NCBI GenBank assembly: GCA_024404275.1
Contig: JAKSQG010000014.1
Location: forward strand, 1 to 21,115
Length of the DNA: 21,115 nt
From: Clostridia bacterium
Lineage (GTDB): Bacteria; Bacillota; Clostridia; Christensenellales; Aristaeellaceae
Direction: 5' to 3'
In this document: positions 3-21,115 of the stretch, piece by piece
How the letters are laid out: every line of letters begins with the position of its first letter
How positions within the stretch are numbered: the stretch's first letter is position 1
Program-made: the position numbers and the translations under genes
The notes under the pieces: model-generated
What the model was told of the DNA's origin: nothing
The model's database searches: none
The model's input: only the letters and a program-made list of their open reading frames with translations

Positions 3-509
3 TTGACCCTACTCGAAGATATTCTGCGCCATAACGCGCAGGACATCGCCGGATTGGCCCGGCTGCTGTACGTACTGGCAGGGTTACATCTCCAGCCGGA
101 AACCGCACATTATGCTCAGGATCTTTACTCACTCGGACGTATCCAAGAAAAACGCGGTCTCATTACCTCGGCCAGAAAATGCTACAAGGCTGCAGATTCC
201 GGTGCCGTCAGTGCTCTCAGCCGTGCGCGGCTTGCCCTTACTTATCAAAGGGAGGGAGAGTGGCAACAAGCTGCAAGCATTTGGCAGCTGATGATCCGTA
301 CTCATCAGGGTGGAGCGGAACCCTATATCGCTCTGGCCAAGCTGCAAGAGCATCGTTTTCATGATCCTTCGGCAGCTGCTGCGACCGTACGATCTGCGCT
401 GGTCTATATGACCGATCAGCCCTCCACCAGCAAAAACAAGCAGCTTTTTGACGATCTGACGCGGCGTTATCATCGTCTGCTGCACACCATCTCCCACCAA
501 ACCGTTTAA
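3..509 (+). CDS. 3' fragment of a larger gene cut by the window edge; possible RNase H-like (YprB-type) exonuclease C-terminus followed by TPR-like helical repeats
   Basis: The open frame runs from the window edge, and the TTG at position 3 is probably not a real start. ILRHNAQDIAGL resembles the last H-x4-D exonuclease motif. The rest is helical and repeat-like. Stop codon is TAA. Confidence 0.4.
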   Translation: MTLLEDILRHNAQDIAGLARLLYVLAGLHLQPETAHYAQDLYSLGRIQEKRGLITSARKCYKAADSGAVSALSRARLALTYQREGEWQQAASIWQLMIRTHQGGAEPYIALAKLQEHRFHDPSAAAATVRSALVYMTDQPSTSKNKQLFDDLTRRYHRLLHTISHQTV

Positions 510-3143: not shown

Positions 3144-4274
3144 TTATTCCCCGCAGCAAAGGTTCAGCTTGCTTTCAGCATCAAAGAAATGCATCACCTT
3201 GCCGCTGAAGGTAATGTTCAGCCTGGCGCCGGCAACAAGACCGGAACGCTGAGCGCTGCTCAGGTTCAGAGTAGGTACACGCACAATGAGGCGGGTGCCG
3301 TCCTCGGTATACACGTGCAGATGCAGCTCGCTGCCCATCATTTCGTTGACCTCGAGTGTGCAGGGAATGCTGCTTTCAGAGGCGCTGTCTGCCAGCACAA
3401 TGTGCTCCGGCCGCACACCAAGGATGATCTCGCGACTGCCTACATCTCCCTCGAGCAGCAGCTCTCGCTTCTCTCCATCCACCGGCAGTCTGGCCCCAAA
3501 GGGACTGACCGTATAGTTGTCACCGCTCCGGGTCAGTTTGGTGGGAATCATATTCATCTTGGGTGCGCCGATAAACTCCGCTACAAAGATATTGCGGGGC
3601 ATCTCAAACACTTCCGTCGGCGTACCGACCTGCTCAATATAACCATCCTGCATGATCACGATCCGGTCGCCCAATGTCATGGCTTCGGTCTGGTCATGTG
3701 TCACATAAATGAATGTGGTATTCAGCTTCTGACGCAGCAGAATGATTTCCGCTCGCATCTGATTGCGCAGTTTGGCATCCAGGTTGCTCAGCGGCTCATC
3801 CATCAGAAAGACCTTTGAATTACGCACCATGGCGCGGCCAATGGCCACGCGCTGGCGCTGACCACCCGACAAGGCGCGGGGTTTGCGTGTCAGATAATCA
3901 GTAATGCCCAGAATCTCGGCAGCATTGGTCACCTTTTCATAGATCTCGTCTTCCGGCATCTTTTTGAGCCGCAGAGAGAAGGCGATATTGTCATACACCG
4001 TCATATGGGGATAGAGCGCGTAGTTCTGGAAGACCATGGCGATATCGCGATCCTTGGGCTGCAGGTCGTTGACCACTTCACCGTCAATCTCCACCGTGCC
4101 CTCGCTGATATCCTCCAGACCGGCCACCATGCGCAGCGTGGTGGATTTGCCGCAGCCGGAGGGGCCGACAAACACCACAAACTCTTTATCCTTGATATCC
4201 AGGTTAAAGTCGTGTACGGCAGTCACTTTGTTATCATATATCTTTTTGACACCCGTCAGCTTTACACTTGCCAT
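3144..4274 (-). CDS. sugar ABC transporter ATP-binding protein (MalK/MsmX/UgpC type with a C-terminal regulatory domain)
   Basis: Walker A GPSGCGKST, Q-loop, signature LSGGQRQRVAIGRA, Walker B VFLMDEPLSNLD and H-loop VTHDQ are all present. The start was chosen at MASVKL (ATG 4274) because AGGAGA lies 6 nt upstream. The ORF-track start at 4316 would overlap the upstream permease gene. Confidence 0.93.
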   Translation of the reverse strand: MASVKLTGVKKIYDNKVTAVHDFNLDIKDKEFVVFVGPSGCGKSTTLRMVAGLEDISEGTVEIDGEVVNDLQPKDRDIAMVFQNYALYPHMTVYDNIAFSLRLKKMPEDEIYEKVTNAAEILGITDYLTRKPRALSGGQRQRVAIGRAMVRNSKVFLMDEPLSNLDAKLRNQMRAEIILLRQKLNTTFIYVTHDQTEAMTLGDRIVIMQDGYIEQVGTPTEVFEMPRNIFVAEFIGAPKMNMIPTKLTRSGDNYTVSPFGARLPVDGEKRELLLEGDVGSREIILGVRPEHIVLADSASESSIPCTLEVNEMMGSELHLHVYTEDGTRLIVRVPTLNLSSAQRSGLVAGARLNITFSGKVMHFFDAESKLNLCCGE

Positions 4275-4299
4275 ATTGATTCTCCTTTCTTGTTGCCCG

Positions 4300-5178
4300 T
4301 CATCCCTTGACGGCACCGCCGGTCACACCCTCGACATAATACTTCTGCAGGCACAGGAACAGCACAGTGACCGGGATGGCCACCAGCACGCCGCCGGCAC
4401 AGAAGAGCGTGTAATTGTTGGCGATCTGGTCTTTGTTCAGCCATCCGTACATACCGACCGCGACGTTTTTGCCGGCGCTGGCGCCCATGGACACATACTG
4501 TGCAAAGACAAAGTCGCCCCAGGGGCTCATAAAGGCCGTCAGAACGGTATAAATGACAATGGGCTTGGACAGCGGAAGAATGATCTTTTTGAGCACCTGA
4601 AAGCGCGTAGCGCCGTCCACGCGTGCCGCCTCGTCGAGGGATTTGGGAATGGTGTCAAAGAAACCCTTGGACACATAATAAAGCATACCGGAGGAGGCAA
4701 CGTACACCAGGATCAATCCGGGTACGGCATTGGCCTGCGTCATGCCCAGATCGGCCAGCACGCGGTAGAGGATGATCATTGTCAGCATGCCCGGGAACAT
4801 GCCCAGGATCAGCATCAAGCGCATCAGCAGCTTGCGCCCTTTGAAACGGAAACGGCTCAGCGCGTAGCTCATACACAGCACGATGAACGTCTGAAGAACA
4901 GAAGAAACCAGCGCAATGATAAAGGTGTTCAGATACCATTTGGGAAAATCCGTCTGGAAAAGCCTGAGATAGTTATCAATGCCCCAGCGTTTGGGGATCA
5001 CATAGCCGACCGGCATGGTATTTTCCACGCGGAAGGATTGAAGCAGAATGCAGATAAAGGGAATCAGCCAGACAACGGAGATGACCGCCAGCAGCACATA
5101 AATGGCGGTATTGCTGATTCTGCGGGAGGTTTTCAGGCCCATGTGCTTCTTGGGGGCCATCACAGTATTCTCACTCAT
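4300..5178 (-). CDS. carbohydrate ABC transporter permease (MalG/GanQ-like)
   Basis: The 292-aa protein has 6 predicted transmembrane helices and an EAA-type loop (LDEAARVDGATRFQVLKKIILPLSKP). Its ATG overlaps the stop of the upstream permease (TAATG). Confidence 0.9.
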   Translation of the reverse strand: MSENTVMAPKKHMGLKTSRRISNTAIYVLLAVISVVWLIPFICILLQSFRVENTMPVGYVIPKRWGIDNYLRLFQTDFPKWYLNTFIIALVSSVLQTFIVLCMSYALSRFRFKGRKLLMRLMLILGMFPGMLTMIILYRVLADLGMTQANAVPGLILVYVASSGMLYYVSKGFFDTIPKSLDEAARVDGATRFQVLKKIILPLSKPIVIYTVLTAFMSPWGDFVFAQYVSMGASAGKNVAVGMYGWLNKDQIANNYTLFCAGGVLVAIPVTVLFLCLQKYYVEGVTGGAVKG

Positions 5179-6719
5179 TACTGGAAATCCTCCTCATTTT
5201 TGATGGACGGCAGCAGGTTGTAGACCACCAGCGAAATGATAGCCACGACCAGGAATACCAGAATACCGACCACCGAAGCCAGATAATAGTTCGCCTCCGC
5301 GCCCTGTGTGATCTTAAACAGCCAGGTGATCAGCAGATCGGTGTAACCTACCGTGCCGGGAGCGGTAGACAGGTTGTTGGTCGGGGCGCCGCCCGTGAGC
5401 AGATAGATCACATTGAAGTTGTTCATGTTGCCCGTGAAACTGGTCAGCAGATAAGGACCCGTCACAAACAGCATATAGGGCAGCGTAATCTTGGAATACT
5501 GCTGCCAGCCGCTGGCGCCGTCGATGCGGGCAGACTCATACAGATCGGCCGGAATATTCATCAGAATGCCGGTGGTGATCAGCATCAGATACGGAATGCC
5601 GATCCAGATGTTGATGATGATTACGGTAATGCGCGCCCAGGTGGGATCCGTCCAGAACGGCAGCAGATGATCCATATCAATGATGCCCAGATCCATCAGC
5701 AGACCGTTGACGATGCCGTTGCTGGCAAACATTTTGGATACATAAAGCAGCGAAATAAACTGCGGAATGGCCACTGTCATCACCAGTACGGTACGCCAGC
5801 CTTTTTTGAAATGAATGCCTTTTTTATTGATGGCCATGGCCACCATCATGCCCAGGAAATAGTTGGTGAAGGTCGCAAAGAACGCCCAGATCAGCGTCCA
5901 CGCCAGCACCTCGCCAAAGGTCGCGGCATAAGAAGAGGAACCGTTGGTCCAGTTGAGCATGGTATTGAAATTATCCAGGCCCACCCAATGGAACAGGTTG
6001 TTGGTATAACCGTTGTTGGCACCGCAATAGTTGGTAAACGCGACCAGAATCATGAAGATGATGGGCAAAACGGTAAATACCAGAATGCCCGTCATCGGCA
6101 GCGCCAGCAGCGTTTTGTGGAACTGATCATCCACCAGCGAGCGCAGGTCTTCCTTGCCGCTCCTGAGCTTTTTTCCGCTCTTGAGGATGCGTTCCGCCGT
6201 CAAGTTCTGCTTCACATTCACACGCCAAGTGTAAATAAACGCGATGATGAAGAAGATGGTCAGTACGCTGTAAAGCAGGATGCGGAAGGAATTGTCATGA
6301 TAGATGGTCACTGTCGCCGTACCGCGAAGGCCGCTGGCCACTTTTTCGGTCGTCGGACCCTGTTTACCCAACGATGGCATCATACCCAGATAATAGCCTC
6401 CGAAGAGTACCATGTACCCGATAAAAACAACTTCGAACAGCAGGAACAAAACTCCTCGCAGGATCTGTCCGCGCGCAAAACAGCCAAAGCCCATCACCAG
6501 ATAAGAGACTTTGGTCTTCCAGTCCCCTGTTACAAAACCCATACAGATGTCACGAGCTTCGCCCGCAATTTTCAAAGCCGCCTGTTTGATGCCGGTAAGA
6601 AGCATCAGGAAAAAGGCGGCCGTTTTTCGGGGAATGGAACAGAGAAAGCTCAGCAGTTTCAAGCCGAACCGCTTTCCCTTTTTCATCCGCAGATATTCAA
6701 GGTCTGTGTATTTAACCAT
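5178..6719 (-). CDS. carbohydrate ABC transporter permease (MalF/GanP-like, with a long N-terminal extension)
   Basis: The 513-aa polytopic protein has an EAA loop (YESARIDGASGWQQYSKITLPYM). Confidence 0.9.
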   Translation of the reverse strand: MVKYTDLEYLRMKKGKRFGLKLLSFLCSIPRKTAAFFLMLLTGIKQAALKIAGEARDICMGFVTGDWKTKVSYLVMGFGCFARGQILRGVLFLLFEVVFIGYMVLFGGYYLGMMPSLGKQGPTTEKVASGLRGTATVTIYHDNSFRILLYSVLTIFFIIAFIYTWRVNVKQNLTAERILKSGKKLRSGKEDLRSLVDDQFHKTLLALPMTGILVFTVLPIIFMILVAFTNYCGANNGYTNNLFHWVGLDNFNTMLNWTNGSSSYAATFGEVLAWTLIWAFFATFTNYFLGMMVAMAINKKGIHFKKGWRTVLVMTVAIPQFISLLYVSKMFASNGIVNGLLMDLGIIDMDHLLPFWTDPTWARITVIIINIWIGIPYLMLITTGILMNIPADLYESARIDGASGWQQYSKITLPYMLFVTGPYLLTSFTGNMNNFNVIYLLTGGAPTNNLSTAPGTVGYTDLLITWLFKITQGAEANYYLASVVGILVFLVVAIISLVVYNLLPSIKNEEDFQ

Positions 6720-6743
6720 CGATCGCTCCCTCTTTCAAAACAG

Positions 6744-6769
6744 CCGGAGCCGGGCTCACCCGACTCCGG
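6744..6769 (-). terminator. intercistronic hairpin after the binding-protein gene; candidate partial terminator or mRNA stabiliser
   Basis: CCGGAGCCGGG, CTCA loop, CCCGACTCCGG (10 of 11 positions pair). On the minus strand it is followed by CTGTTTTG. It lies between the SBP stop (6808) and the permease start (6719). Confidence 0.45.
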
Positions 6770-6807
6770 CCGCTGCAGCCGTTCGCCGTATCGCGGCGGA
6801 AGAATTG

Positions 6808-8328
6808 TTATTCGGTCACCAGGCTGACTTCGCCGGTGGTTTCGTTGAACTGCACAAAGTAAGTGCCGTCGGCTTCCACCTTGAAGTTGTCGGCCGGGAA
6901 AGCGTTATCCCAGCTACGACCCTGACGCACCTTGAACTCGGTACCGGCGGGCATGGCATAAGCCTGAGTGGTCTTCCAGATGCCGTTTTCGCCGGTCATC
7001 GGGATATCATCGGCCCAGTTGGAGCGGGTTTCGCCGTTGTAATCGGTATAGAAGAAGCCATCCACCAGATTGCAGGTGCCGATCACGCCCCAGGAAGTCT
7101 TTTCTTCACTGGTCATGGTGAACAGCGCGGCGATCTTGGAGGTGTAGTTATCCAGCGCGGCCTGCAGACCGGCTTCGTCCTGAGCAGCCTTCACGTCATC
7201 GCCGATAACCTTGGCAATATCCCACCAGGCGCCGTGGATCTGACCCTGAGGAGTGGAGTAGGGAGACTGAGCCAGCAGAGCAGCCAGACCGGGGTTGGCC
7301 TGAACGGCTTCGGATTCCTGCGCCAGCAGATTGGAGGGGCCCCAGGCCATCTCGTTGAAGCGGTCCATCTGGCAATCATAACCGGTCAGGTACTCCGCCA
7401 GAATTTCCAGAGCAACGGCCTTGTCGCCATCCACCTGAGGCTTAATGCCCAGCAGCTTGCTGCCGGAGAAGCTGCCCAGATGATAGTTAACGCCGTCCAC
7501 AGTGAAGCAGGGCAGGTCAGCCACGCCCATGTTCTCGCCCAGAATGGATTCCACAGTGGCGTAGTCCCAGGTACCGGTCACAACCACAGCGCTGCCGGAC
7601 GCGAAGTCGGCACCGGCGGAGGAGTTGACCAGGCAGCTGGAGTCCACCAGCTTCTTCATACCCTTCACGGCAATCAGGCCGTTCGGGCTGTTGAAGGTAT
7701 CGTTAACGGAAATGAAATCGCCGTTTTCATCGGTCGTCCACTCAGACACGCAGCCGGTGGCGAAGAAGAAGGAGGCGTTGTACCAGGCGCTGCTGTTCAT
7801 TTCGAAGGAGAAGAACTTGCCGGCAGCCTCACAGTCGGCGATGATGGCTTCCAGAGAATCCACATCCGCCTCGGGGATCACGCTCTTGTCATAATACATG
7901 AAGTAGCCGTTATCAGCGGTCAGCGGATAGGCGTACATCACATCACCGGCCATACCGGCAGCCACAACGCCGGCGGCGTTGGCTTCGGTCACGATGGCGG
8001 CAGAGTCTTCGCTCAGCTCAGCCAGAGCACCGGCCTGCACCAGACGGGCAAACTGGTCATTGGCGAAGCAGTAAATATCCGCACCGGCTTCGACGTCCAC
8101 GATCATGTTGGTCGCGGCTTCACCTTCGGAAACAGGTTCCACGGCGGCGTTGAACTTGATGCCGTATTCGTTGGTGGCATTGAAGGTTTCGATCTGAGCC
8201 TTGGTCATGTCGACGATCTTTTCGGCGACCCAAACAGTGATGTTGTACTCGTAGGTGTTTTCAGCCAGGGCGGACACCATGGACAGAGCCATCACTACGG
8301 ACAGTACAAGAGCGAGCAGTTTCTTCAT
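6808..8328 (-). CDS. extracellular solute-binding protein (family 1, MalE/CycB/GanS-like) with an extra C-terminal beta-sandwich (CBM-like) domain
   Basis: The N-terminal signal peptide is MKKLLALVLSVVMALSMVSALA|EN. Residues of about 25-405 form a family-1 SBP-like body. Residues 411-506 are an additional domain with WGVIG...W...M...GIW...AGTEFKVRQGRSWDN...DGTYFV. Confidence 0.85.
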   Translation of the reverse strand: MKKLLALVLSVVMALSMVSALAENTYEYNITVWVAEKIVDMTKAQIETFNATNEYGIKFNAAVEPVSEGEAATNMIVDVEAGADIYCFANDQFARLVQAGALAELSEDSAAIVTEANAAGVVAAGMAGDVMYAYPLTADNGYFMYYDKSVIPEADVDSLEAIIADCEAAGKFFSFEMNSSAWYNASFFFATGCVSEWTTDENGDFISVNDTFNSPNGLIAVKGMKKLVDSSCLVNSSAGADFASGSAVVVTGTWDYATVESILGENMGVADLPCFTVDGVNYHLGSFSGSKLLGIKPQVDGDKAVALEILAEYLTGYDCQMDRFNEMAWGPSNLLAQESEAVQANPGLAALLAQSPYSTPQGQIHGAWWDIAKVIGDDVKAAQDEAGLQAALDNYTSKIAALFTMTSEEKTSWGVIGTCNLVDGFFYTDYNGETRSNWADDIPMTGENGIWKTTQAYAMPAGTEFKVRQGRSWDNAFPADNFKVEADGTYFVQFNETTGEVSLVTE

Positions 8329-8403
8329 TAGTACTTCATCCTTTCTTTTATTTCAAAGACTTTCGTCTATGAATCACGCCTTATATGGTTAACAATCGAC
8401 CAT

Positions 8404-8432
8404 ATTATAGTCTGTTCATTAGTCTTTGTCAA
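8404..8432 (-). promoter_or_regulatory. perfect-consensus promoter for the transporter genes, overlapping the 3' end of the GH42 gene
   Basis: The minus strand reads TTGACA (8432-8427), a 17-nt spacer, then TATAAT (8409-8404). Confidence 0.6.
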
Positions 8433-10473
8433 TCATCAATTCAGTATTCTGCTCCTTGGTCGTCCGTGTCAGCACCAGGATTCCGTTCGGCTCCAACGCA
8501 ACCGGGCCGTTTTTTTCCGTTTTCTCCAAAGTGTCCGTAAAGGTACACGGCAAATGAACTGTCTGTTGAACGCCGGAATAGTTCTGGACAAAAAAACAAT
8601 TTCCGCGCACCGTCACCGTTACGCCCCGCGGCAGATCGGCAAACGGATGCCCGCGAAGCGCCAGCTGACCGGCAAGTTTTCCGTAAAATGCATTCAGAGC
8701 GGCTTGTTCTACCCGGGCCGCGATGTAATAAGCCTGGCCCTCGCCGTAATGATTTCTTGTAATCACAGGCAGTCCCCTGTAAAAGTCCTGCTGATAAGCC
8801 GCCATCGTCTCTGCCCCTTCCGGAACGCAGAGTTCACACAGATCGGCAATTTCATACTGTTTGCCGTATAGCATCGTATGATTGCGCTCCGACGGATGCA
8901 ATGCGTCCATCTCTTCCACACGCAGCCCCAGTACCTCTGTCAGCCCATGAGGCGTATCTCCCATGAAAGCCAGATCGGTATCATCCACAAGTCCGCTGAA
9001 ATAGCTCATGACCAATGTGCCGCCATGCGAAACATATTCCTTCAGCTTCTTTTCAAAATCATTGCGGAGCATAAACAGCATTGGCGCGATGACCAGCGAA
9101 TAGCCCTCCAGATCGGTGCAGGCGCGCATATCACAAAAATCGACGCTGATTCCCTGCTCCCACAGAGCCCGGTAGTGTCCGTTGACGGTGTCAAAATAGC
9201 GCATCTGCCCTTTCAGTCCCGCCTGCGCGAAGTCCACCGCCCAGCGGCAATTCCAGTCAAAAATGATACAAACCTTTGCCTGCACAGGTGTACCGGCCAG
9301 CGGACGCAGGCGCTCCAGCATTTCTCCCACCTGCGTTACATCCCGAAAGACCCGGGTATCCGCCCGGTTGTTGTGGCTGACCACCGCGCCATGGAAGGTC
9401 TCCGGCCCGCCCACGCATTTGCGCCATTGGAAATACTGCACACTGTCGCTGCCGTGCGCTACCGCCTGCAGGGAAGAAAGGGTGTGCATGCCCGGCTTTT
9501 TCAGCTTATTGACATTCTTCCAGTTCACCTGCGACGGCGTGCTTTCCATCAGCAGGAACGGCGCCTTTTTCAATGAACGCATGATATCATGGTTCATGGC
9601 AAATTCCGCAGCCCGGGCAATGTCATCGCCGCTGTGCCATTCCGGATAGCTGTCCCATGAGACCACGTCCAGCGTTTCCGCCAGCGCAAAGTAATCATAA
9701 TCCCAGAAGCGTTCCATCAGGTTGGCGGTCACGGGCAGTTTCACCGCCGCAGACTGTACAGCCTGCTTTTCCATACGGATAAAATCCGCACAGGTCTCAC
9801 TCATAAAGCGCTGCCAATCCACCCGCAGGGAAACGCAGCTCATCTCTCCCAGCGGCGAAGGACTTTCCACCTGCTCCCATTCGGTATACCACTGATTCCA
9901 CACGCCGGTGCACCAGCGGCGATTCAATTCCTGAAGCGTACCGTATTTCTTCCTGAGCCAGTTACGAAAGGCCGCCTGACAGTTTTCACAATGACAGGTA
10001 CCACCAAATTCATTGCTGATGTGCCAAAGAATCACCGCCGGGTGCGCCGCGTAACGCTCGGCCAGCGCTGTATCAATGGCCCGCACCTTTTCACGGTAAA
10101 CCGGCGATGTCAGACAGTGATTCTGTCTTTCTCCGAAAAGCAGCCGCTCCCGCCTTTCATTGACCCGCAGAACCTCGGGATATCTGCGAGCCATCCAGGC
10201 AGGCTTCGCTCCGCTGGGAGTGGCCAGAATAACATGGATGCCGCCCTTCCACAGGCGGTCGATCACCTCATCCAGCCATTCAAAATCATACTCCCCCTCC
10301 CGTGGTTCCATTCTTGTCCAGCTGAAAATACCGACGGAAACGCAGTTGACATGTGCCTGATGCATCAGGCGGATATCCTCTTCGAGAATATCCTTCCTGT
10401 CCAGCCACTGATCCGGATTATAATCACCGCCGTGCAGAAAGCCCGCTTGGTGGATAAAATCATTGCTCATCAT
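8419..10473 (-). CDS. GH42 beta-galactosidase (GanA/LacA/BgaB-like)
   Basis: GGDYNPDQW, IFSWTRMEPREGEYDFEWLD and WHISNEFGG (acid/base Glu) are present. A Cys cluster is also present (C110, then CHCENC), and the length of 684 aa fits a trimer-type enzyme. GGAGGA lies 9 nt before the ATG. Confidence 0.93.
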   Translation of the reverse strand: MMSNDFIHQAGFLHGGDYNPDQWLDRKDILEEDIRLMHQAHVNCVSVGIFSWTRMEPREGEYDFEWLDEVIDRLWKGGIHVILATPSGAKPAWMARRYPEVLRVNERRERLLFGERQNHCLTSPVYREKVRAIDTALAERYAAHPAVILWHISNEFGGTCHCENCQAAFRNWLRKKYGTLQELNRRWCTGVWNQWYTEWEQVESPSPLGEMSCVSLRVDWQRFMSETCADFIRMEKQAVQSAAVKLPVTANLMERFWDYDYFALAETLDVVSWDSYPEWHSGDDIARAAEFAMNHDIMRSLKKAPFLLMESTPSQVNWKNVNKLKKPGMHTLSSLQAVAHGSDSVQYFQWRKCVGGPETFHGAVVSHNNRADTRVFRDVTQVGEMLERLRPLAGTPVQAKVCIIFDWNCRWAVDFAQAGLKGQMRYFDTVNGHYRALWEQGISVDFCDMRACTDLEGYSLVIAPMLFMLRNDFEKKLKEYVSHGGTLVMSYFSGLVDDTDLAFMGDTPHGLTEVLGLRVEEMDALHPSERNHTMLYGKQYEIADLCELCVPEGAETMAAYQQDFYRGLPVITRNHYGEGQAYYIAARVEQAALNAFYGKLAGQLALRGHPFADLPRGVTVTVRGNCFFVQNYSGVQQTVHLPCTFTDTLEKTEKNGPVALEPNGILVLTRTTKEQNTELMIDKD

Positions 10474-10489
10474 TTCTTTTTATCCTCCG

Positions 10490-12085
10490 TCAGCGCAGCA
10501 CAGCACTGGTCTGAGCCTCCAGGGTTACAACGGTACCGTCCAGTTTCGCCGCGCCCTGTCCGATGTACGCGCTGACCGTATCAAAGCTCAGCTCCGTCAC
10601 AGCGGCAAGATCGAGCGTCACAGCACGCTTGGTGGTATTGTGAAGCACGCAAACGGTGCTGCCGTTCAGCGTGCAAAGGAAGCCGCCGGCTTTGGTATCG
10701 TTGAAGTTCAAGGCCCGATAATCACCCGCCGCGATCTCGGGATGGGCTTTTCGTATCATCAGCAGCTGCCTGTAATAGTGATAAACGCTCGTTTCATCCT
10801 TCATCTGATCCGCCACGGTATAAGGCATCTGATTCGCCTTTTCATAGGTGGCCCCCACAGGATCCCGCACCGTGTCGCCATCCCCCCACAGCATTGCCAG
10901 ACGACGATTGGCGTCCGTGGACGCGCCGCCGCGCGAACCACGCAGACCAATCTCCTCACCATAATAGATGAACGGGGATCCCGGCGAGAGCAGATACAGA
11001 TTGGCCGCCATCTGCATGCGGTGTGTTGCCACTGTGAGGTAGCCGGCCGCACGGTCTGTATCATGGTTGGCCACAAAGAGCATATTCATGGCTGCAGGAT
11101 TCAGCTTTTTGATCTGATGAATATAGCCCTCGATATAGGCGGTGAATTTGTTGACATTGCCCGCCGCCGCAGTGGTGGCAATGAGTCCGGAGGCCTGTGA
11201 AGCCGTAAAGTTGAAACAATTGACCGCCCCGGCATAGCGTTCGGTAATGCTGTCGCTGTCCCACACCTCCGCCACGGTATAAACATCGGGCTTGATCTTT
11301 TTTAATTCGCCGATGTACCATTCCCAGAATGCTGCATTGGCGTCGTGATCGCCGTAATAGATGTATTTGGCGGCGTCAAAACGGAAGCCGTCCACGCCCA
11401 ACGCCAGATAGTATTCCGCTATTCTGAGCACCTCGGCGCGGATGGTTTCATTGTCAAAATTCAGCTCGGGCATATTGTCCGAAAAATTGGCCTCCACGCG
11501 CATATCGGAAACGTTCATAAAATGCCGTCCCGCCGGCAAAGAAGCATCCGCCGGCACCCAGCTATAATAATCATAATACTTGTTGGCCGGATTATGCGTG
11601 ATGTGCGCGTTTTTGAAATTGACATACCACTTGTTCCGGTCGCCGGTATGATTGATGGGCAGGTCCAGAATCACCAGCATGCCGCGCTCATGGCACAGTG
11701 AGACCAGCTCCTTCAGCTCCTCCATCGTGCCGAACGCGGGATCGACGGTATAATAATCCGTCACGTCATACTTGTGGTAAGAAGGGGATGAATAGATCGG
11801 TGTCAGCCACAGTCCCTCCACCCCCAGCGACCGTCCGGAATCGGGATCGCCGTCGTTGAGATAATCCAGACGGTTGATGATGCCCCTGAGATCGCCGATG
11901 CCGTCTCCATTGGAATCGGAGAATGAACCGACAAAAATCTCATAGAACACACGATTCTGCCCGATATCCATCTTTTCCGATTCGGATCCTTTCTGTGCCT
12001 GTTCTTCCGCCAGAATACTCCCTGTGTCTGAAAAAGGGCAAACGATGAGAATCAGAAGAGCAATTGTCAGATATACAAATTTCAT
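10490..12085 (-). CDS. secreted GH13 alpha-amylase-family glycosidase
   Basis: An N-terminal hydrophobic signal is present. GH13 regions seen are YEIFVGSFSDSNGDGIGDLRGIINRLDYL, VILDLPINHTG, GVDGFRFDAAKY, AEVWD and VANHDTDR. The stop lies 16 nt upstream of the GH42 ATG, with the ribosome-binding site in between. Confidence 0.9.
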   Translation of the reverse strand: MKFVYLTIALLILIVCPFSDTGSILAEEQAQKGSESEKMDIGQNRVFYEIFVGSFSDSNGDGIGDLRGIINRLDYLNDGDPDSGRSLGVEGLWLTPIYSSPSYHKYDVTDYYTVDPAFGTMEELKELVSLCHERGMLVILDLPINHTGDRNKWYVNFKNAHITHNPANKYYDYYSWVPADASLPAGRHFMNVSDMRVEANFSDNMPELNFDNETIRAEVLRIAEYYLALGVDGFRFDAAKYIYYGDHDANAAFWEWYIGELKKIKPDVYTVAEVWDSDSITERYAGAVNCFNFTASQASGLIATTAAAGNVNKFTAYIEGYIHQIKKLNPAAMNMLFVANHDTDRAAGYLTVATHRMQMAANLYLLSPGSPFIYYGEEIGLRGSRGGASTDANRRLAMLWGDGDTVRDPVGATYEKANQMPYTVADQMKDETSVYHYYRQLLMIRKAHPEIAAGDYRALNFNDTKAGGFLCTLNGSTVCVLHNTTKRAVTLDLAAVTELSFDTVSAYIGQGAAKLDGTVVTLEAQTSAVLR

Positions 12086-12117
12086 ATTCAGAAACCTTCC
12101 TTCGTTTTTTCAACGAT

Positions 12118-12146
12118 ATCGTAAACTTTTCAAAACAGCTTGTCAA
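12118..12146 (-). promoter_or_regulatory. candidate promoter for the GH13/GH42 operon
   Basis: The minus strand reads TTGACA (12146-12141), a 17-nt spacer, then TACGAT (12123-12118), about 35 nt upstream of the GH13 ATG. Confidence 0.5.
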
Positions 12147-12168
12147 GAAAAATAAAAAATGTTAATAT
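12140..12168 (+). promoter_or_regulatory. candidate divergent promoter for the membrane-protein/GH53 unit
   Basis: TTGTCA (12140-12145), a 17-nt spacer, then TGtTAATAT (-10 at 12163-12168). Its -35 element shares base pairs with the minus-strand -35. Confidence 0.5.
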
Positions 12169-12201
12169 GAACTCAAATTCCGCCATAAAGGTGAAACCAT
12201 C

Positions 12202-12687
12202 ATGCATATATATTCCGAGCTTCAAATCCGTCAAATGAAAAAACGTGCCGCGCTGTACAAAACAGCGGCGGTTCTGATTGCCGTGTGTGCCTGGATCACT
12301 TGCGTAACGCTGTGCATCATCACGCGTACAGCCACAGACGCCATCCTGCACACGGCGGTTGTTCTGGTCTCGCTGTGTGCCGGCTGGGCCGTCATTCTGC
12401 TTTTGACCATGGGCTATCAACCCAACAAGGCAGGCGCCTCACACGCGGAAGGCATTCTGAAGGACATTGCCCGGGAAGAAACCGTCAGCGGTCTTCTGCT
12501 TCAGACAGACAGCCCCGTACGCATACCCGGTTCTGTGGAGATCTGCCGTGTCAGCATCCTTTGCGGCGAGGAAAAAAAGCGGCTGAGTATTCTGGAGAGC
12601 AAACGGGAGACGCTGCCCTCCCCCGGTTCCCCAGTCACCGTAAAAGTTGTCCGCAGCTTTATCAGCGAGGTGGAAGATGCGCGGTAA
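12202..12687 (+). CDS. hypothetical membrane protein (2 predicted transmembrane helices plus a soluble C-terminal domain of about 85 aa)
   Basis: AAGGTGA lies upstream of the ATG. Two hydrophobic helices are present (AAVLIAVCAWITCVTLCII and VVLVSLCAGWAVILLLTMG). I recognise no family. Confidence 0.55.
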   Translation: MHIYSELQIRQMKKRAALYKTAAVLIAVCAWITCVTLCIITRTATDAILHTAVVLVSLCAGWAVILLLTMGYQPNKAGASHAEGILKDIAREETVSGLLLQTDSPVRIPGSVEICRVSILCGEEKKRLSILESKRETLPSPGSPVTVKVVRSFISEVEDAR

Positions 12688-13222
12688 ATTGAGGATACTC
12701 AAACGGCAGCTGCCGCTGCTGATCATCTGGGCTGTACTGAGCAGCCTGATCTGGTCCTGGATCTTCATGCTGGTCACCGAGCCCGATGCCCGGCACAAGC
12801 TGGTCATTGCTGTGGACGCCACGGTATCCGACGTGACGGAGCTGGCGGTCTCGCTGGAATCGTTCATGGAAGGTGATATCCAAAGGATCAAGGTTTACCC
12901 TTTTACTTATGCAATGATGGACAGCAGCACGCTGGAAAAAGCCGATCTGCTGATTCTCTCCGCTGAAGGCATAAATACCTATCTTGACTGGCTGGCGCCG
13001 CTGCCCGCCGCAATCGCTTCCGATCAGGCTCTGTCGGTGATGGGGATCGCCTACGGGCTCCCTCTTAAAAACCCCCTTGTACTGCGGCATCTTTCCGGGG
13101 ACGCCGGCGCGTGGTATGTCTGTCTCGGACAAAAAAGCATCCATGCCGGCCGCGCTGACGGACAGGGTTCCGAGGCGTTGCCTTATCTGACTTTACTTTC
13201 CTCCGGTGCATCGGTGGACTAA
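12677..13222 (+). CDS. hypothetical single-pass membrane protein with an extracytoplasmic domain
   Basis: The start was chosen at MRGKLRIL (ATG 12677, GAGGTGG upstream), which overlaps the previous stop (ATGCGCGGTAA). One N-terminal transmembrane helix is present (LPLLIIWAVLSSLIWSWIFMLV). I recognise no family. Confidence 0.55.
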   Translation: MRGKLRILKRQLPLLIIWAVLSSLIWSWIFMLVTEPDARHKLVIAVDATVSDVTELAVSLESFMEGDIQRIKVYPFTYAMMDSSTLEKADLLILSAEGINTYLDWLAPLPAAIASDQALSVMGIAYGLPLKNPLVLRHLSGDAGAWYVCLGQKSIHAGRADGQGSEALPYLTLLSSGASVD

Positions 13223-13233
13223 AGGAGAAAAAG

Positions 13234-14139
13234 ATGAAAAGAATCGCCCTGCTCCTGATCCTGACGCTGCTTGCCGCGCTGAATTGCATTGCCTTTGCGG
13301 AAGAGAGCCCCGCAGCAGGCAGTACCCTTTATGTCAAAAAGGTGGAGAACCTTTCCGATGATTTTGTTTTCGGCATGGATGCCTCTTGCGTGATTGCTCT
13401 GGAAAACAGCGGCGTCCGATTCTATGATTTTAACGGCATCGAACAGGATGTTTTTAAAACATTGCACGAAAACGGTATCAATGCCATTCGCGTCCGGATC
13501 TGGAATGATCCCTATGACCCTGCCGGTCACGGCTATGGCGGCGGCAACTGCGATATCGCCAAAGCCATCGAGATCGGCCGCCGTGCCACCGAAAACGGCA
13601 TGTCGCTGATTGTCAGCTTCCATTACAGCGATTTCTGGGCCGATCCCTCCAAGCAGATCGTTCCCAAGGCTTGGAAGGGGCTCAAAATTGCCGATAAGAC
13701 TACTGCGGTTTATGAGTTTACCCGGGAATGCCTCCTGCAGCTGAAGGATGCGGGAGTGGATGTCTGCATGGTGGCGGTCGGCAATGAAACCAACCAACTG
13801 ATGTGCGGAGAGAAAACCTGGTTCAACATTCAGTACCTGATGCAAGCCGGCGCCCGGGCGACACGGGAAATCTTCCCCGAAGCGCTGGTGGCACTTCATT
13901 TTACTAACCCCGAGAAGGCCGGCAGCCTCATGACATACGCCAAAAAGATGGATTATTATCAGGTAGATTACGATGTGTTTTCCACCTCCTATTATCCTTA
14001 CTGGCATGGCACGCTGCAAAACCTTTCATCCGTGTTGAGCGAAGTAGCCGAAACTTATGGCAAAAAAGTGATGGTAATGGAAACCAGCTATGCCTACACC
14101 TCCGAAGACAGCGATTTTTACGGCAACACCATCTCATAG
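13234..14139 (+). CDS. GH53 endo-beta-1,4-galactanase (GanB/GalA-like), signal peptide plus most of the catalytic domain, ending at an in-frame TAG
   Basis: AAGGAGA ribosome-binding site and signal peptide ...CIAFA|EE. GH53 motifs present are GMDASCVIALENSG, NAIRVRIWNDP, FHYSDFWADPSKQ.VPKAW, VGNETN (acid/base) and METSYAYT (nucleophile). The frame stops at TAG 14137-14139. Confidence 0.9.
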   Translation: MKRIALLLILTLLAALNCIAFAEESPAAGSTLYVKKVENLSDDFVFGMDASCVIALENSGVRFYDFNGIEQDVFKTLHENGINAIRVRIWNDPYDPAGHGYGGGNCDIAKAIEIGRRATENGMSLIVSFHYSDFWADPSKQIVPKAWKGLKIADKTTAVYEFTRECLLQLKDAGVDVCMVAVGNETNQLMCGEKTWFNIQYLMQAGARATREIFPEALVALHFTNPEKAGSLMTYAKKMDYYQVDYDVFSTSYYPYWHGTLQNLSSVLSEVAETYGKKVMVMETSYAYTSEDSDFYGNTIS

Positions 14140-15183
14140 GGCGGCGCCGTCATCAAGGATTATCCTTTCACCGTTCAGGGACAGGCGAATTCCCTTCGGG
14201 AAATTACCAATACGCTGGTCAACCGGACGAGCAGCGCCATCGGCATGGTCTACTGGGAAGGCACATGGATTGGCGGCGGCGGCGGCAGCTGGGAAGAAAA
14301 CCATGCCCTGTGGGAAGAGTACGGCAGCGGCTGGGCCAGCAGCTACGCCCGTGCCTACGATCCGAATGACGCTGGAAAATACTACGGCGGCAACGCGGTG
14401 GATAATCAGGCGATGTTTGACCCGGAAGGGCACCCGCTGGAATCGCTGAAGGTTTTTTCCCTGATGAAAACCGGCAATGAGATATCTCCCGTGGCCGATG
14501 CTCCCGAAGACGTCCGCCTGATTGTCGATATCAACGGTGATATCACGCTGCCGGATACCGTTGATGCCATCATGACGGATAACTCCCGCCGCTCTATCCC
14601 CGTGGAGTGGGATTTTACCGCCGAACAGGATGCCATGATGCACGAAAACGGCGTTGCGGCTTATACGATCACCGGCACCGCCGGCGGCATGACCGCCACC
14701 TGTTATATCAACATGGTCGAATACAATTATCTGAACGATTACAGCTTTGAAGAAGGCGGCAGCTGCTGGGTGCTTACCGATCTGAACAAAGCCGATGAAT
14801 TGTATGTGGAAGAGAAAAAATCCGACAGTCTGACCGGCGTAAAGCATCTGCATTTCTGGAGCGCGGCAAAAAACAGCGTGGAATTCACCGCGGAGCAGAC
14901 CCCGGAAAACCTGCCTGCCGGGCGTTACAAATTCAGCATGTCCGCCATGGGAGGGGACTGCGGCGCCACAGAGGCATACATCTACGTCAAGGTGAACAAC
15001 GAAATAATCGCCCGCGCCAATCTTGTCTTCAGCAGCTACGGCAACTGGTATACCGCCGTCATTCCCGCCTTTGAGCACGCTGCGGAGGATACGGTCACGG
15101 TCGGTGTATATGTCAAAGCGCAGGGAACCGGCAACGGCGCCTGGGGTAAGCTGGACGACGCGCTGCTCAACAGCGTAAAATGA
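14140..15183 (+). CDS. continuation of the same GH53 galactanase in the same frame: end of the catalytic domain, an Ig-like domain and a CBM-like domain
   Basis: The sequence directly after the TAG reads GGAVIKDYPFTVQGQANSLREI...GMVYWEGTWI...ALWEEYGSGWASSYA..YDPNDAGKYYGGNAVDNQAMFD. This is conserved GH53 C-terminal core sequence. The first ATG (14245) lies inside that core, and no separate ribosome-binding site or signal peptide is present. Confidence 0.85.
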   Translation, partial: GGAVIKDYPFTVQGQANSLREITNTLVNRTSSAIGMVYWEGTWIGGGGGSWEENHALWEEYGSGWASSYARAYDPNDAGKYYGGNAVDNQAMFDPEGHPLESLKVFSLMKTGNEISPVADAPEDVRLIVDINGDITLPDTVDAIMTDNSRRSIPVEWDFTAEQDAMMHENGVAAYTITGTAGGMTATCYINMVEYNYLNDYSFEEGGSCWVLTDLNKADELYVEEKKSDSLTGVKHLHFWSAAKNSVEFTAEQTPENLPAGRYKFSMSAMGGDCGATEAYIYVKVNNEIIARANLVFSSYGNWYTAVIPAFEHAAEDTVTVGVYVKAQGTGNGAWGKLDDALLNSVK

Positions 15184-20113: not shown

Positions 20114-20123
20114 CCAAACAAAA

Positions 20124-20147
20124 ACCGGCTGCCTCACGGCAGCCGGT
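20124..20147. terminator. bidirectional terminator between the FAD oxidoreductase and barstar genes
   Basis: ACCGGCTGCC stem, TCAC loop, GGCAGCCGGT stem (10-bp). A T-rich run follows on the minus strand (TTTTGTTTGG) and a weaker one on the plus strand (GCTTTC). Confidence 0.7.
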
Positions 20148-20151
20148 GCTT

Positions 20152-20418
20152 TCAGTGAATCGTCACGCGGATAAATTCATTTTCTTCCGCCGCATCCTGC
20201 AGCATACGGATCAATGAGTTTCCCCAGCGGTCAAACTTTTCCCGCAGGCTATCGGCATTCTCGATTGTCAGTTCAATATCCCGGGCTTCCGTCAGCGCAT
20301 CATACAGTGCGTCAAGATTGGAAGCATACTCCTCGCTGAGCTCCAACGCGTCATGCAGGGCCTTTCTTGCTTCGGTTCTGCTCTCCCACAGAGCGGCATC
20401 CAGGCAAATTGTCCGCAT
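20152..20418 (-). CDS. barstar-family ribonuclease inhibitor
   Basis: ALELSEEYASNLDALYDALTE matches the barstar core ([20 protein letters not shown]), including the two Asp residues that contact barnase. The product is 88 aa. GGAGGTG lies upstream, and the ATG starts 1 nt after the RNase stop. Confidence 0.88.
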   Translation of the reverse strand: MRTICLDAALWESRTEARKALHDALELSEEYASNLDALYDALTEARDIELTIENADSLREKFDRWGNSLIRMLQDAAEENEFIRVTIH

Positions 20419-20419
20419 C

Positions 20420-20767
20420 TTATTTCACCTCCGTAAAGGTCTCATAGTGATCATTGGTATAATAGATCTTGCCATTTTTGCCGATGATCAGGCGTTCTGT
20501 TCCGCGGAAACCACCATGATAATTCACATCGCATTCAATATATGTGGTATTTTCAGGCAGCTGACCTTCATAGTTGCCAAATCGGTCTCCACCGATGGAT
20601 TTGCCCGGCGCTACCTCCCACAGGTTGCCCTTGGAGCTGACCCAGCCGAGGTTCTGCGCTTTGGACTTGGTAATGTAGTTGGACGGCAGTTTGCCATATA
20701 AACGATAGTATGCCGCTACCTCTTCCGGCGTATCATAGGTACCGTTTTTATCAAGGACCGGTGCTTC
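20420..20767 (-). CDS. barnase-like guanyl-specific ribonuclease domain with no start codon of its own, in frame with the upstream ORF across a TAG
   Basis: My manual translation gives EAPVLDKNGTYDTPEEVAAYYRLYGKLPSNYITKSKAQNLGWVSSKGNLWEVAPGKSIGGDRFGNYEGQLPENTTYIECDVNYHGGFRGTERLIIGKNGKIYYTNDHYETFTEVK*. It aligns along its length with barnase (YHKLPDNYITKSEAQALGWVASKGNLADVAPGKSIGGDIFSNREGKLPG...EADINY..GFRNSDRILYSSD.LIYKTTDHYQTFTKIR). Confidence 0.85.
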   Translation of the reverse strand, partial: EAPVLDKNGTYDTPEEVAAYYRLYGKLPSNYITKSKAQNLGWVSSKGNLWEVAPGKSIGGDRFGNYEGQLPENTTYIECDVNYHGGFRGTERLIIGKNGKIYYTNDHYETFTEVK

Positions 20768-21115
20768 CTACGGTACTTCGTAACGGCTCCAAAGGCTGAC
20801 ACCGTCATCGGTATAGTATGCCAGCTTGCCCTCTTCCTGTTGAATCAGGGCATCCTGTTCAGAAAGGATAACGATGCCATCGGCATCCATTTCCCACATT
20901 CCCTTTTCCGTAACCACCTGTTTGGCGGTGGTATCGGTCAGGGTGTAGGTGCCGTCTTCTTCAAAGCTGAGCAGCTTTTCCGCTTCCTTGAAGGTGATTA
21001 CACTGCTGCCGTCCGTGTAGCTTTCCTCCTGCCAGAGACCCACAGGAAACACCGTTTCCCCCAGTGCAGGCAGCACAAGCAGCAGACACAGCAGCAGACA
21101 CAATAATTTCTTCAT
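20768..21115 (-). CDS. signal peptide plus a small N-terminal beta-rich domain (possibly lipocalin-like) of the secreted RNase; the ORF ends at an in-frame TAG
   Basis: The ATG falls on the last three bases of the window. The signal peptide is MKKLLCLLLCLLLVLPALG|ET. The remaining roughly 95 aa have a G.W...DG.Y pattern. The stop TAG at 20768-20770 is in frame with the barnase domain. Confidence 0.7.
   Translation of the reverse strand: MKKLLCLLLCLLLVLPALGETVFPVGLWQEESYTDGSSVITFKEAEKLLSFEEDGTYTLTDTTAKQVVTEKGMWEMDADGIVILSEQDALIQQEEGKLAYYTDDGVSLWSRYEVP
21079..21102. repeat. perfect 12-bp tandem duplication inside the signal-peptide coding region
   Basis: GCAGCAGACACA occurs twice in tandem on the plus strand. 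It encodes the repeated CLLL-CLLL in the hydrophobic core of the signal peptide. Confidence 0.9.

Follow-up and report, generated by a model that had tools for sequence, protein, structure and literature searches.

A gut Clostridia bacterium encodes a predicted secreted barnase-type ribonuclease whose reading frame is interrupted by an in-frame TAG, and we consider it probable that the organism as a whole uses TAG as a sense codon, codon 116 of the RNase gene being translated in the ordinary way and not through a signal specific to that gene. The gene occupies the minus strand at 20420-21115 of the 21,115-nt stretch of DNA analysed here (the window); readable sequence for the species amounts to about 41 kb. 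Within it, a lone in-frame TAG flanked on either side by homologous sequence recurs in three other genes: a GH53 galactanase, an MrfB-like exonuclease and a GNAT acetyltransferase. That TAG would be decoded genome-wide is an extrapolation from 32 genes in these about 41 kb.

Translation of the RNase locus from the ATG at 21115 gives 115 codons, the TAG, 115 further codons in the same frame and a TAA, which bears out the arrangement of two 115-codon halves around a TAG described in the initial annotation, made from the sequence alone (Table 1). The first half, M1 to P115, reads MKKLLCLLLCLLLVLPALG... and comprises a signal peptide and an N-terminal domain. The latter matches DUF5004 weakly (E 3e-4), and its remote homologues in a full HMMER search are tandem Lipocalin_4 repeats within large proteins. 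Among 5.8 billion proteins it forms a single 90% cluster in which every member is 115 aa long, and the product of the window is identical to a protein of an NCBI MAG. Across strains the domain shows pN/pS of 0.06-0.2. An AlphaFold model made without an alignment was too poor for use (pLDDT 49.5).

Table 1 Features of the RNase-barstar unit and of two other TAG-containing genes, in window coordinates.
Feature	Position	Strand	Basis or remark
RNase precursor, codons 1-115 (signal peptide + small lipocalin-like beta domain)	20771..21115	-	Translation
Sec-type signal peptide, about codons 1-19	21059-21115	-	Ends ...LPALG/ET
In-frame TAG, codon 116	20768..20770	-	Predicted to be translated as an amino acid
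Short linker + complete barnase-type (N1/T1 microbial) RNase domain, codons 117-231	20423..20767	-	PF00545
TAA, actual stop of the RNase gene	20420..20422	-	Translation
Barstar immunity gene	20152..20418	-	PF01337, E 4.6e-10; begins 1 nt past the RNase stop
Intrinsic terminator-like hairpin + T tract closing the RNase-barstar unit	20114..20147	-	10-bp stem, 8 GC pairs
GH53 endo-beta-1,4-galactanase + Big_4 + C-terminal region	13234..15183	+	Pfam; PDB 1R8L
MrfB/YprB-like exonuclease, 3' part (TPR tail)	3..509	+	TAG just beyond the window, L091:9396-9398

The 115 codons behind the TAG read EAPVLDK...TFTEVK. They match the Pfam family PF00545 (Ribonuclease) over profile positions 6-97 of 98 (E 2.5e-19) and align with barnase residues 6-109 (E about 3e-35). 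Equivalents of barnase K27, E73, R83, R87 and H102 are all found, in ITKSK, IECD, FRGTER and NDHY; the aligned catalytic segments (RNase/barnase) are itKsk/itKse, yiEcd/wrEad, gfRgteRl/gfRnsdRi and ndHye/tdHyq. The profile match and the alignment thus confirm the full barnase-like domain, with its catalytic residue equivalents, that had been read from the letters. That no start codon comes ahead of a GTG behind the Lys and Glu equivalents proved correct as well: in the window strain the earliest in-frame ATG, GTG or TTG past the TAG is the GTG at 20525-20527, codon 81 of the 115. The signal peptide and the RNase domain share one product only if the TAG is translated.

The barstar gene was also correctly placed by the initial annotation. 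The segment NLDALYDALT aligns with NLDALWDALT of barstar, covering the binding helix with the equivalents of D35 and D39, and the gene shows pN/pS of 0.06-0.17 between strains. It is followed by the terminator-like hairpin, whose 10-bp stem has 8 GC pairs (TTTTGTTT), and strain L089 has the same element after its barstar gene. This is the sole terminator in the unit, with none between the TAG and the RNase domain. Since the window stops exactly at the ATG of the RNase gene, the promoter and ribosome-binding site were taken from L089, where a promoter-like site (11/12 matches, extended -10) and a GGAG RBS lie upstream of the gene. Judged by these elements, the RNase gene and barstar form one transcription unit. 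The gene itself reads as an ordinary secreted barnase with its barstar, for which RNase activity is predicted, and not as a new form of toxin regulation.

The TAG was compared between the window and assemblies from six other samples (Logan, ENA) and is invariant in all seven sequences (the window, L001, L004/L089, L005, L006, L007 and L008), while its neighbours vary at position 3 of codon 115 (CCG/CCA) and position 2 of codon 117 (GAA/GCA). The TAG is not a base-call error: at assembly level, the same codon is TAG in each of the six other samples. Strong purifying selection acts on the domain behind it. Between the window and L006 it has 20 synonymous and 2 non-synonymous differences (Sd 20, Nd 2; pS 0.26, pN/pS 0.03), which argues that it is translated, and the roughly 27 variable sites of the RNase half across strains fall mostly at third codon positions. 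In the 13 codons after the TAG both amino-acid changes are linker substitutions, and the core has one more, H201Q. The domain in the window strain is by these measures intact and not an old pseudogene, as had been argued before. Being intact, under selection and without a start of its own here, it can be made only by translating through the TAG.

The main alternative, which we hold to be unlikely, is a split gene in which the TAG is a true stop. The locus would then encode a 115-aa secreted lipocalin-like protein and, separately, a leaderless cytoplasmic RNase that starts downstream or by termination-reinitiation and forms a toxin-antitoxin-like pair with barstar. Some strains offer a start for such a protein: L004 and L005 have ACG changed to ATG at codon 129, one of just three non-synonymous changes in the RNase half (a rough count puts the share of possible changes that give an ATG at that codon at about 1 in 150), and L006-L008 have GTG at codon 133. 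Gene callers accordingly annotate separate RNases of 103 and 99 aa from codons 129 and 133. The window strain and L001, however, have neither start; their earliest in-frame start, codon 197, lies behind K27 and E73, and an independent start codon is ruled out for the window strain by this lack of an early in-frame start. Nor does a good Shine-Dalgarno sequence precede codon 129 or 133.

Codons 117-128, which would go untranslated in a split gene, are constrained: 2 of their 36 nt are variable compared with 24.6% at four-fold sites (P = 0.003), and they retain the V-x-(D/E)-(K/D/N)-G-x-Y motif of the RNase family. The upstream intergenic region is conserved as well (5 of 97 nt variable), so low variability is by itself no proof of translation. 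Homologues from other species also bear on the split gene. At all 80 homologous RNase loci a signal peptide and the RNase share an ORF without interruption, and no leaderless locus occurs among them, from which it follows that a functional RNase here needs the upstream signal peptide. Finally, a start behind the stop leaves unexplained the TAGs that fall in the middle of the catalytic domains of the GH53, MrfB and GNAT proteins.

The orthologue comparison proposed at the outset returned TAG in all seven sequences of the species and no orthologue with a sense codon at this position in the collections, where the N-terminal domain falls in one 90% cluster and HMMER finds only remote proteins. A scan of genome contigs yielded no relative closer than 70%, and a degenerate DNA pattern spanning the RNase TAG had no match in JGI metagenomes.

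The three further TAG-containing genes are unrelated to the RNase and non-toxic. The GH53 TAG (14137-14139) lies inside the catalytic domain and splits its Pfam match, and a full-length alignment of the protein to PDB 1R8L runs across the TAG (E 2e-147). The best 120 GH53 orthologues, the closest available, are all uninterrupted, while the TAG itself is kept in L090 and L092. The MrfB-like exonuclease aligns with PDB 8UN9 across its TAG (E 7e-36), and the GNAT gene, an ArsN1-like acetyltransferase, has its TAG at L089:3160-3162. All four genes are stored in databases as fragments. The homologues have D (78), G (37) or E (5) at the GH53 position, E in the closest relatives and F/C/V/I/L elsewhere at the MrfB position, and L/I/I/L/V at the GNAT position; these residues conflict and no single amino acid is indicated. 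The codons of the nearest relatives at TAG positions, GAC and GAA, are not one-step neighbours of TAG.

Stop-codon usage was tallied over 32 verified genes (12,047 codons). Their terminal stops are TAA in 19, TGA in 13 and TAG in none, and the internal stops are four TAGs, in 4 of the 32 genes, with no TAA or TGA. Related gut Clostridia may themselves seldom end genes in TAG (background rate 7-14%), so that the absence of TAG terminators is alone only modestly significant (P about 0.01-0.1); among the 80 RNase homologues from other Clostridia, 11 end in TAG. Two long TAG-terminated ORFs on the plus strand (4036-5223 and 6511-8331) were rejected as antisense shadows of permease and SBP genes. 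Two relatives, L093 (0/14 TAG stops) and the human-gut L097 type (0/15, with a crude gene caller), have no internal TAGs either; that they share the altered use of TAG is suggested by these counts, which are not significant.

A programmed leaky stop, as put forward by the initial annotation, would make the TAG a normal terminator at which low readthrough has been selected to limit the dose of a toxic RNase. This we judge very improbable. The conserved TAG, the selected domain behind it and the retained barstar gene would all fit, and the long minority product would be secreted along with the short majority one. The same feature, however, recurs in three non-toxic genes within the same 41 kb, no verified gene uses TAG to terminate, and the other 80 members of the RNase family do without such a stop. 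Stimulatory structure is lacking too: RNA folding downstream of the four TAGs did not differ significantly from shuffled controls (z -0.43 for the RNase, -0.65, -1.71 and -0.01 for the others), no motif shared by the four contexts was found, and an Rfam search of the available sequence returned tRNA only. With neither a structure nor a motif in common, decoding looks context-independent. Three unrelated non-toxic genes with TAG, no TAG terminators and no recoding structure together point to a property of the organism's decoding. Of the original interpretation, the part in which the RNase is made only through the TAG stands, and the dose-limiting leaky stop is not supported.

Recent nonsense mutations, with the four genes as young pseudogenes of accessory functions in a gene-losing lineage and an RNase not yet degraded, are equally improbable in our assessment. 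All four affected genes are indeed accessory, the strain differences downstream of the GH53 TAG are few and neutral-looking (Sd 2, Nd 6, too few to judge), and ordinary nonsense does occur in these strains, as in the private TCA->TGA of the L091 amylase gene. Against such decay, the RNase TAG is older than a strain divergence of pS 0.2-0.3, over which the domain has kept pN/pS of 0.03 with no indels, and the tail of the MrfB-like exonuclease shows Sd 40 and Nd 10 between the window and L091 (pN/pS 0.08). The four conserved interruptions are moreover all TAG, with zero TAA or TGA, and the sole TGA interruption, that of the amylase gene, is private to one assembly.

A sequencing or assembly artefact, or contamination from a TAG-recoded phage, is exceedingly improbable even though all data are metagenome assemblies and TAG-to-Gln phages are common in guts, as the identical TAG recurs across samples and pipelines amid ordinary polymorphism and the contigs carry pyruvate kinase, NifS/NifU, HflX, Lon, peptide deformylase and tRNA-Pro, with sugar ABC transporters, GH42 and GH13 as further neighbours and no viral context.

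Taking TAG as a sense codon, we propose that the minus-strand gene is one cistron in which a barnase-type RNase follows a signal peptide and a lipocalin-like domain. The cistron would be co-transcribed with barstar from a promoter just past the end of the window, and transcription would stop at about 20114-20147. Decoding of codon 116 as an amino acid would give a precursor of about 231 aa, and the full-length product would be secreted, as are all other members of the PF00545 RNase family examined, with barstar shielding the cytoplasm. TAG would be rare inside the conserved domains of unrelated genes and unused for gene ends. A tRNA with anticodon CUA would be expected, alongside a release factor 1 (RF1) that is absent or outcompeted. 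Such a tRNA might be tRNA-Pyl with PylS and PylBCD, as in a bacterial version of archaeal 'Code 34', or else a suppressor tRNA that carries one of the standard amino acids. The window and its flanks contain no tRNA(CUA), only tRNA-Pro(GGG), and the about 41 kb of readable sequence holds no prfA, pylT, pylS, pylBCD or TAG-containing methylamine methyltransferase. On balance, we lean towards a species, and possibly a wider clade, in which UAG has ceased to be a stop and is a rare sense codon, either for pyrrolysine at every TAG or for a standard residue read by a tRNA(CUA) after loss of RF1; this fuller account is somewhat less secure than the decoding of TAG itself.

Barnase-barstar is a secreted guanyl-preferring RNase with its cytoplasmic inhibitor. 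The present gene shares the PF00545 fold family with the Bacillus amyloliquefaciens pair (and with binase and RNase Sa), as well as the five catalytic or substrate residues, a signal peptide and a pro or linker region encoded ahead of the domain, and an adjacent inhibitor gene; unlike barnase, its precursor has an extra lipocalin-like domain and an in-frame TAG before the RNase. For the TAG, the closest parallel is archaeal 'Genetic Code 34' (Kivenson et al., bioRxiv 10.1101/2024.09.30.615893), where TAG always stands for pyrrolysine. Common to both are rare TAGs in ordinary enzymes at sites that relatives do not conserve, two-sided homology ('Category 1'), a lack of TAG terminators and of a PYLIS-like signal, and genes split by gene callers. 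Code 34 was, however, described as confined to archaea; in bacteria, pyrrolysine is reported only from methylamine methyltransferases and one serine dehydratase, TAG being otherwise a stop (bioRxiv 10.1101/2024.09.30.615893), and the host here is a gut Clostridia bacterium known from about 41 kb.

In code 15, found in crAss-like, Lak and other gut phages, TAG is Gln, usually through a suppressor tRNA(CUA). There too gut-associated sequences use TAG as a sense codon, whereas the present TAGs lie in a chromosomal region with housekeeping genes and the homologue residues at these sites do not favour Gln. Bacterial reassignments include UGA to Trp (Mycoplasmatales and others) and UGA to Gly (Absconditabacteria, Gracilibacteria). 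They likewise turn a stop into a sense codon genome-wide, presumably via loss of the matching release factor, but the surveyed bacterial cases are all UGA/RF2 and none is UAG/RF1. No account of a bacterium with reassigned UAG turned up in the literature consulted, surveys of code changes included.

If borne out, the change would make this the first free-living bacterium with a reassigned UAG and would add a new bacterial code. Phages, eukaryotes and, of late, archaea are the groups for which genome-wide decoding of TAG has so far been reported (for the last, bioRxiv 10.1101/2024.09.30.615893). The organism would also show in nature what losing RF1 entails and may be a source of new orthogonal tRNA/synthetase pairs. 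So far, loss of RF1 has mostly been seen in engineered E. coli. Roughly one in every eight of the organism's genes would be mis-annotated as two fragments in public databases, and because standard pipelines split TAG-containing genes, the functional profiles of these gut bacteria would be wrong.

On translation, the ribonuclease gene of the window consists of 115 codons, an in-frame TAG and 115 further codons in the same frame, and all of the factual statements that the initial annotation made on 20420-21115 hold. The second half matches PF00545 (Pfam, E 2.5e-19) and can be aligned to barnase residues 6-109 (E about 3e-35). This alignment contains equivalents of K27, E73, R83, R87 and H102 (5/5), in line with the earlier claim that the catalytic and substrate residues are all there. 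The domain had also been described as start-less apart from a late GTG; in the window strain the earliest in-frame ATG, GTG or TTG past the TAG is indeed a GTG at codon 197, 3′ of the Lys and Glu equivalents. As likewise reported, a barstar gene (PF01337, E 4.6e-10) begins 1 nt past the RNase stop, and its product retains the NLDALxDALT binding helix. The N-terminal lipocalin-like domain (20771-21115, minus strand) is a near-orphan: a set of 5.8 billion proteins contains a single 90% cluster of it, and its other relatives are all remote (26-39% identity), occurring as tandem repeats of the Lipocalin_4 type within large secreted proteins.

Coordinates of the genes carrying in-frame TAG codons (window positions unless a same-species contig, L089 or L091, is named)
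Feature	Position	Strand	Remarks
RNase precursor, 5′ half	ATG at 21115, 115 codons	minus	MKKLLCLLLCLLLVLPALG..., Sec-type signal peptide and small domain
In-frame TAG, codon 116 of RNase gene	20768-20770	minus	
RNase half	115 codons after TAG, to TAA 20420-20422	minus	same frame, EAPVLDKNGTYDTPEEV...TFTEVK
GH53 endo-beta-1,4-galactanase	13234-15183, TAG 14137-14139	plus	split Pfam match, frame continues to TGA
GNAT (ArsN1/phosphinothricin acetyltransferase-like)	L089:2839-3417, TAG 3160-3162		alignment across TAG to 5JTF and other structures
MrfB/YprB-like DEDDh exonuclease with TPR tail	L091:8835-9974, TAG 9396-9398		alignment across TAG to MrfB 8UN9, E 7e-36

The initial annotation had proposed a comparison with orthologues. 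Searches for exact protein matches and the members of protein clusters led to same-species contigs from other samples (L001, L004/L089, L005, L006, L007 and L008). An NCBI MAG labelled 'Clostridia bacterium' encodes proteins identical to those of the window itself. The TAG is present in all seven sequences spanning the RNase site (window included), none of which has a sense codon there. It is invariant beside a variable third base of codon 115 (CCG/CCA) and a variable second base of codon 117 (GAA/GCA). Given that strain-to-strain synonymous divergence reaches pS 0.26, a TAG common to all strains is older than their divergence.

Codons 117-231 contain about 27 sites that vary across strains, most of them in the third position of a codon. 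Three substitutions alter the amino acid: E117A and T129M, both within the 13 codons following the TAG, and H201Q in the RNase core. Between the window and L006, the RNase half has 20 synonymous and 2 non-synonymous differences (pN/pS 0.03), as compared to roughly 3.5 non-synonymous per synonymous change expected for an untranslated remnant, which supports the earlier contention that this is no old pseudogene. Constraint is at least as strong as in the N-terminal half (pN/pS 0.06-0.2) and barstar (0.06-0.17). In the first 12 codons past the TAG, 2 of 36 nucleotides are variable vs 24.6% at four-fold sites (P = 0.003), and these codons retain V-x-(D/E)-(K/D/N)-G-x-Y, a motif located 5′ of the domain in homologues; the upstream intergenic region is likewise conserved (5/97 nt vary), and low variability is by itself no proof of translation. 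Overall, these substitution patterns indicate that the RNase domain downstream of the TAG is translated.

In-frame TAGs also interrupt GH53, MrfB-like and GNAT genes. The GH53 ORF (13234-14139) stops at profile position 260/340, inside the catalytic domain, and the same frame past the TAG runs on to the TGA at 15183, covering the remainder of the GH53 profile as well as a Big_4 domain. The read-through product aligns end to end with the B. licheniformis galactanase 1R8L (E 2e-147) and matches the 120 closest orthologues, about 645 aa and all uninterrupted. This TAG is also found in the same-species contigs L090 and L092. In the MrfB-like gene, the TAG lies between exonuclease motifs in flanking sequence (strain ERZ27247129); the 3′ part of the gene, window 3-509, is under purifying selection (Sd 40, Nd 10, pN/pS 0.08). 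The GNAT gene is found about 7 kb past the window's right end in the flank of the same strain, the TAG sitting in the helix after motif A at a site covered by a single strain.

The window also holds a galactan/galacto-oligosaccharide utilisation cluster (3144-15183) comprising a MalK-type ATPase, two permeases, a solute-binding protein, GH42 beta-galactosidase, GH13 and GH53. GH53 is stored in databases as two proteins of 301 and 312 aa, and 14140-15183 is mostly its non-catalytic C-terminal part. The closest relative (L093) has a similar gene set (GH42, GH13, GH53, SBP, permeases, MalK); its transporter genes lie on the opposite side of GH53. Two small ORFs between GH13 and GH53 (12166-13222, plus strand; 161 and about 181-191 aa) have no Pfam match, and their position is kept in L090, L092 and L093.

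For family architecture, a genome contig scan supplied 80 loci for comparison, all from other gut and rumen Clostridia and each encoding a related RNase. The RNase domain lies in a single unbroken ORF at every locus not cut by a contig end, and these ORFs start at least 33 codons 5′ of the domain with a signal or lipoprotein peptide; no stop just 5′ of the domain was found among the 80 loci. As the uncut loci are all signal- or lipoprotein-led single ORFs, the RNase made here should, to be useful, include the signal peptide encoded upstream. In L089, a promoter-like site (TTGAAA-17-TATAAT with TG) lies upstream of the RNase ATG, with GGAG about 9 nt 5′ of this ATG. The sole strong terminator follows barstar (window 20124-20147 plus T tract), and the RNase-barstar arrangement is, as judged from these signals, one transcription unit.

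A separate RNase could instead be initiated downstream of the TAG. L004 and L005 have an ATG at codon 129 (window 20729-20731, from ACG) and L006-L008 a GTG at codon 133 (20717-20719, from GTA), from which gene callers annotate RNases of 103 and 99 aa, respectively; that the codon-129 change is one of the three non-synonymous changes in the RNase half is a little suspicious. Nonetheless, we consider independent initiation unlikely. The window strain has neither start codon, both lack a good RBS upstream, the region 5′ of them is constrained, and a leaderless barnase would be unprecedented among the 80 homologous loci. Furthermore, such initiation is no rescue for GH53, MrfB and GNAT, in which the TAG splits the catalytic domain. 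The codon-129 ATG and codon-133 GTG may be chance changes or secondary start codons.

A leaky stop specific to the RNase gene, limiting toxin dosage as the initial annotation had suggested, is very improbable because in-frame TAGs are also found in GH53, GNAT and MrfB. It is likewise very doubtful that the TAG-interrupted genes are young pseudogenes: the GH53 tail past the TAG (14140-15183, window vs L092) has Nd 6 and Sd 2, against Sd 7 and Nd 1 before it, but these changes are too few to interpret and sampling too thin to judge, and the selection data on the RNase domain and MrfB tail contradict this reading. Sequencing or assembly artefact and phage contamination are excluded for practical purposes by the recurrence of the TAGs in independent assemblies and their housekeeping gene context.

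A stop-codon census covered 32 genes backed by Pfam or synteny (12,047 codons, about 41 kb of metagenome assemblies). Terminal codons were TAA (19), TGA (13) and TAG (0), and internal stops were TAG (4), TAA (0) and TGA (0). Elsewhere, TAG terminates 11/80 RNase homologues and, by a crude codon-usage gene caller, 19/276 genes in RNase-homologue loci and 30/149 in unrelated metagenome loci. Against these frequencies, 0/32 alone is only moderately unusual; the weight of the census is the clean separation of always internal TAG from always terminal TAA and TGA. A TGA in the GH13 alpha-amylase gene (L091:19954-20705, minus strand; window about 11198-11200) is private to L091, the window and L090 having TCA (Ser), and unlike the conserved TAGs appears to be an ordinary mutation or an error of assembly. 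Two long TAG-ended ORFs (4036-5223 and 6511-8331, plus strand; 395 and 606 aa) have no Pfam match and were rejected as antisense shadows of the genes for an ABC permease and a solute-binding protein; a stop-codon count that took them at face value could go wrong. The closest relatives found are syntenic (GH53 identity 67-72%, MrfB 63-69%), and TAG terminates 0/14 genes in L093 (ERZ1767599 NODE_381) and about 0/15 in L097/L103/L110 (human-gut metagenome contigs), with no internal TAGs in either. TAG avoidance may be wider than this species.

The most economical account of the sequence data is that TAG would be decoded as an amino acid wherever present in this organism. The TAG contexts are unlike each other (ccgTAGgaa, tcaTAGggc, ttgTAGgaa, ggaTAGccg), the 120 nt 3′ of each of the four TAGs are no more stably folded than shuffled controls (z -0.43, -0.65, -1.71, -0.01), and an Rfam search returned tRNA-Pro only. 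Homologues have D/G/E at the GH53 TAG column (120 closest orthologues), E (closest relatives) or F/C/V/I/L (others) for MrfB and L/I/V for GNAT; the RNase TAG is located in a linker. These scattered residues fit rare new TAGs at tolerant positions, as described for archaeal Pyl, and also fit a standard-amino-acid suppressor. The pattern agrees with the features by which Code 34, the archaeal code with TAG read as pyrrolysine (Kivenson et al., bioRxiv 10.1101/2024.09.30.615893), was defined: many internal TAGs with two-sided homology, no must-be-stop TAG and no PYLIS. The 41 kb of species sequence contains neither a tRNA(CUA) nor pyl genes nor prfA.

In the searchable literature, bacterial stop-codon reassignments are all of UGA (Shulgina and Eddy 2021), and a survey from 2026 spanning about 2.7 million assemblies, in which Pyl was not modelled, gives no UAG case. 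The Code 34 preprint confines known bacterial Pyl to methylamine methyltransferases plus a single serine dehydratase, TAG being otherwise stop (bioRxiv 10.1101/2024.09.30.615893). TAG recoding in that literature is otherwise phage, archaeal or eukaryotic only. With no UAG reassignment in bacteria found there, TAG as a sense codon in this bacterium would be new, the kind of phenomenon being already known. The RNase-barstar pair itself is ordinary, and with its TAG read as sense the RNase gene would encode an ordinary secreted precursor.
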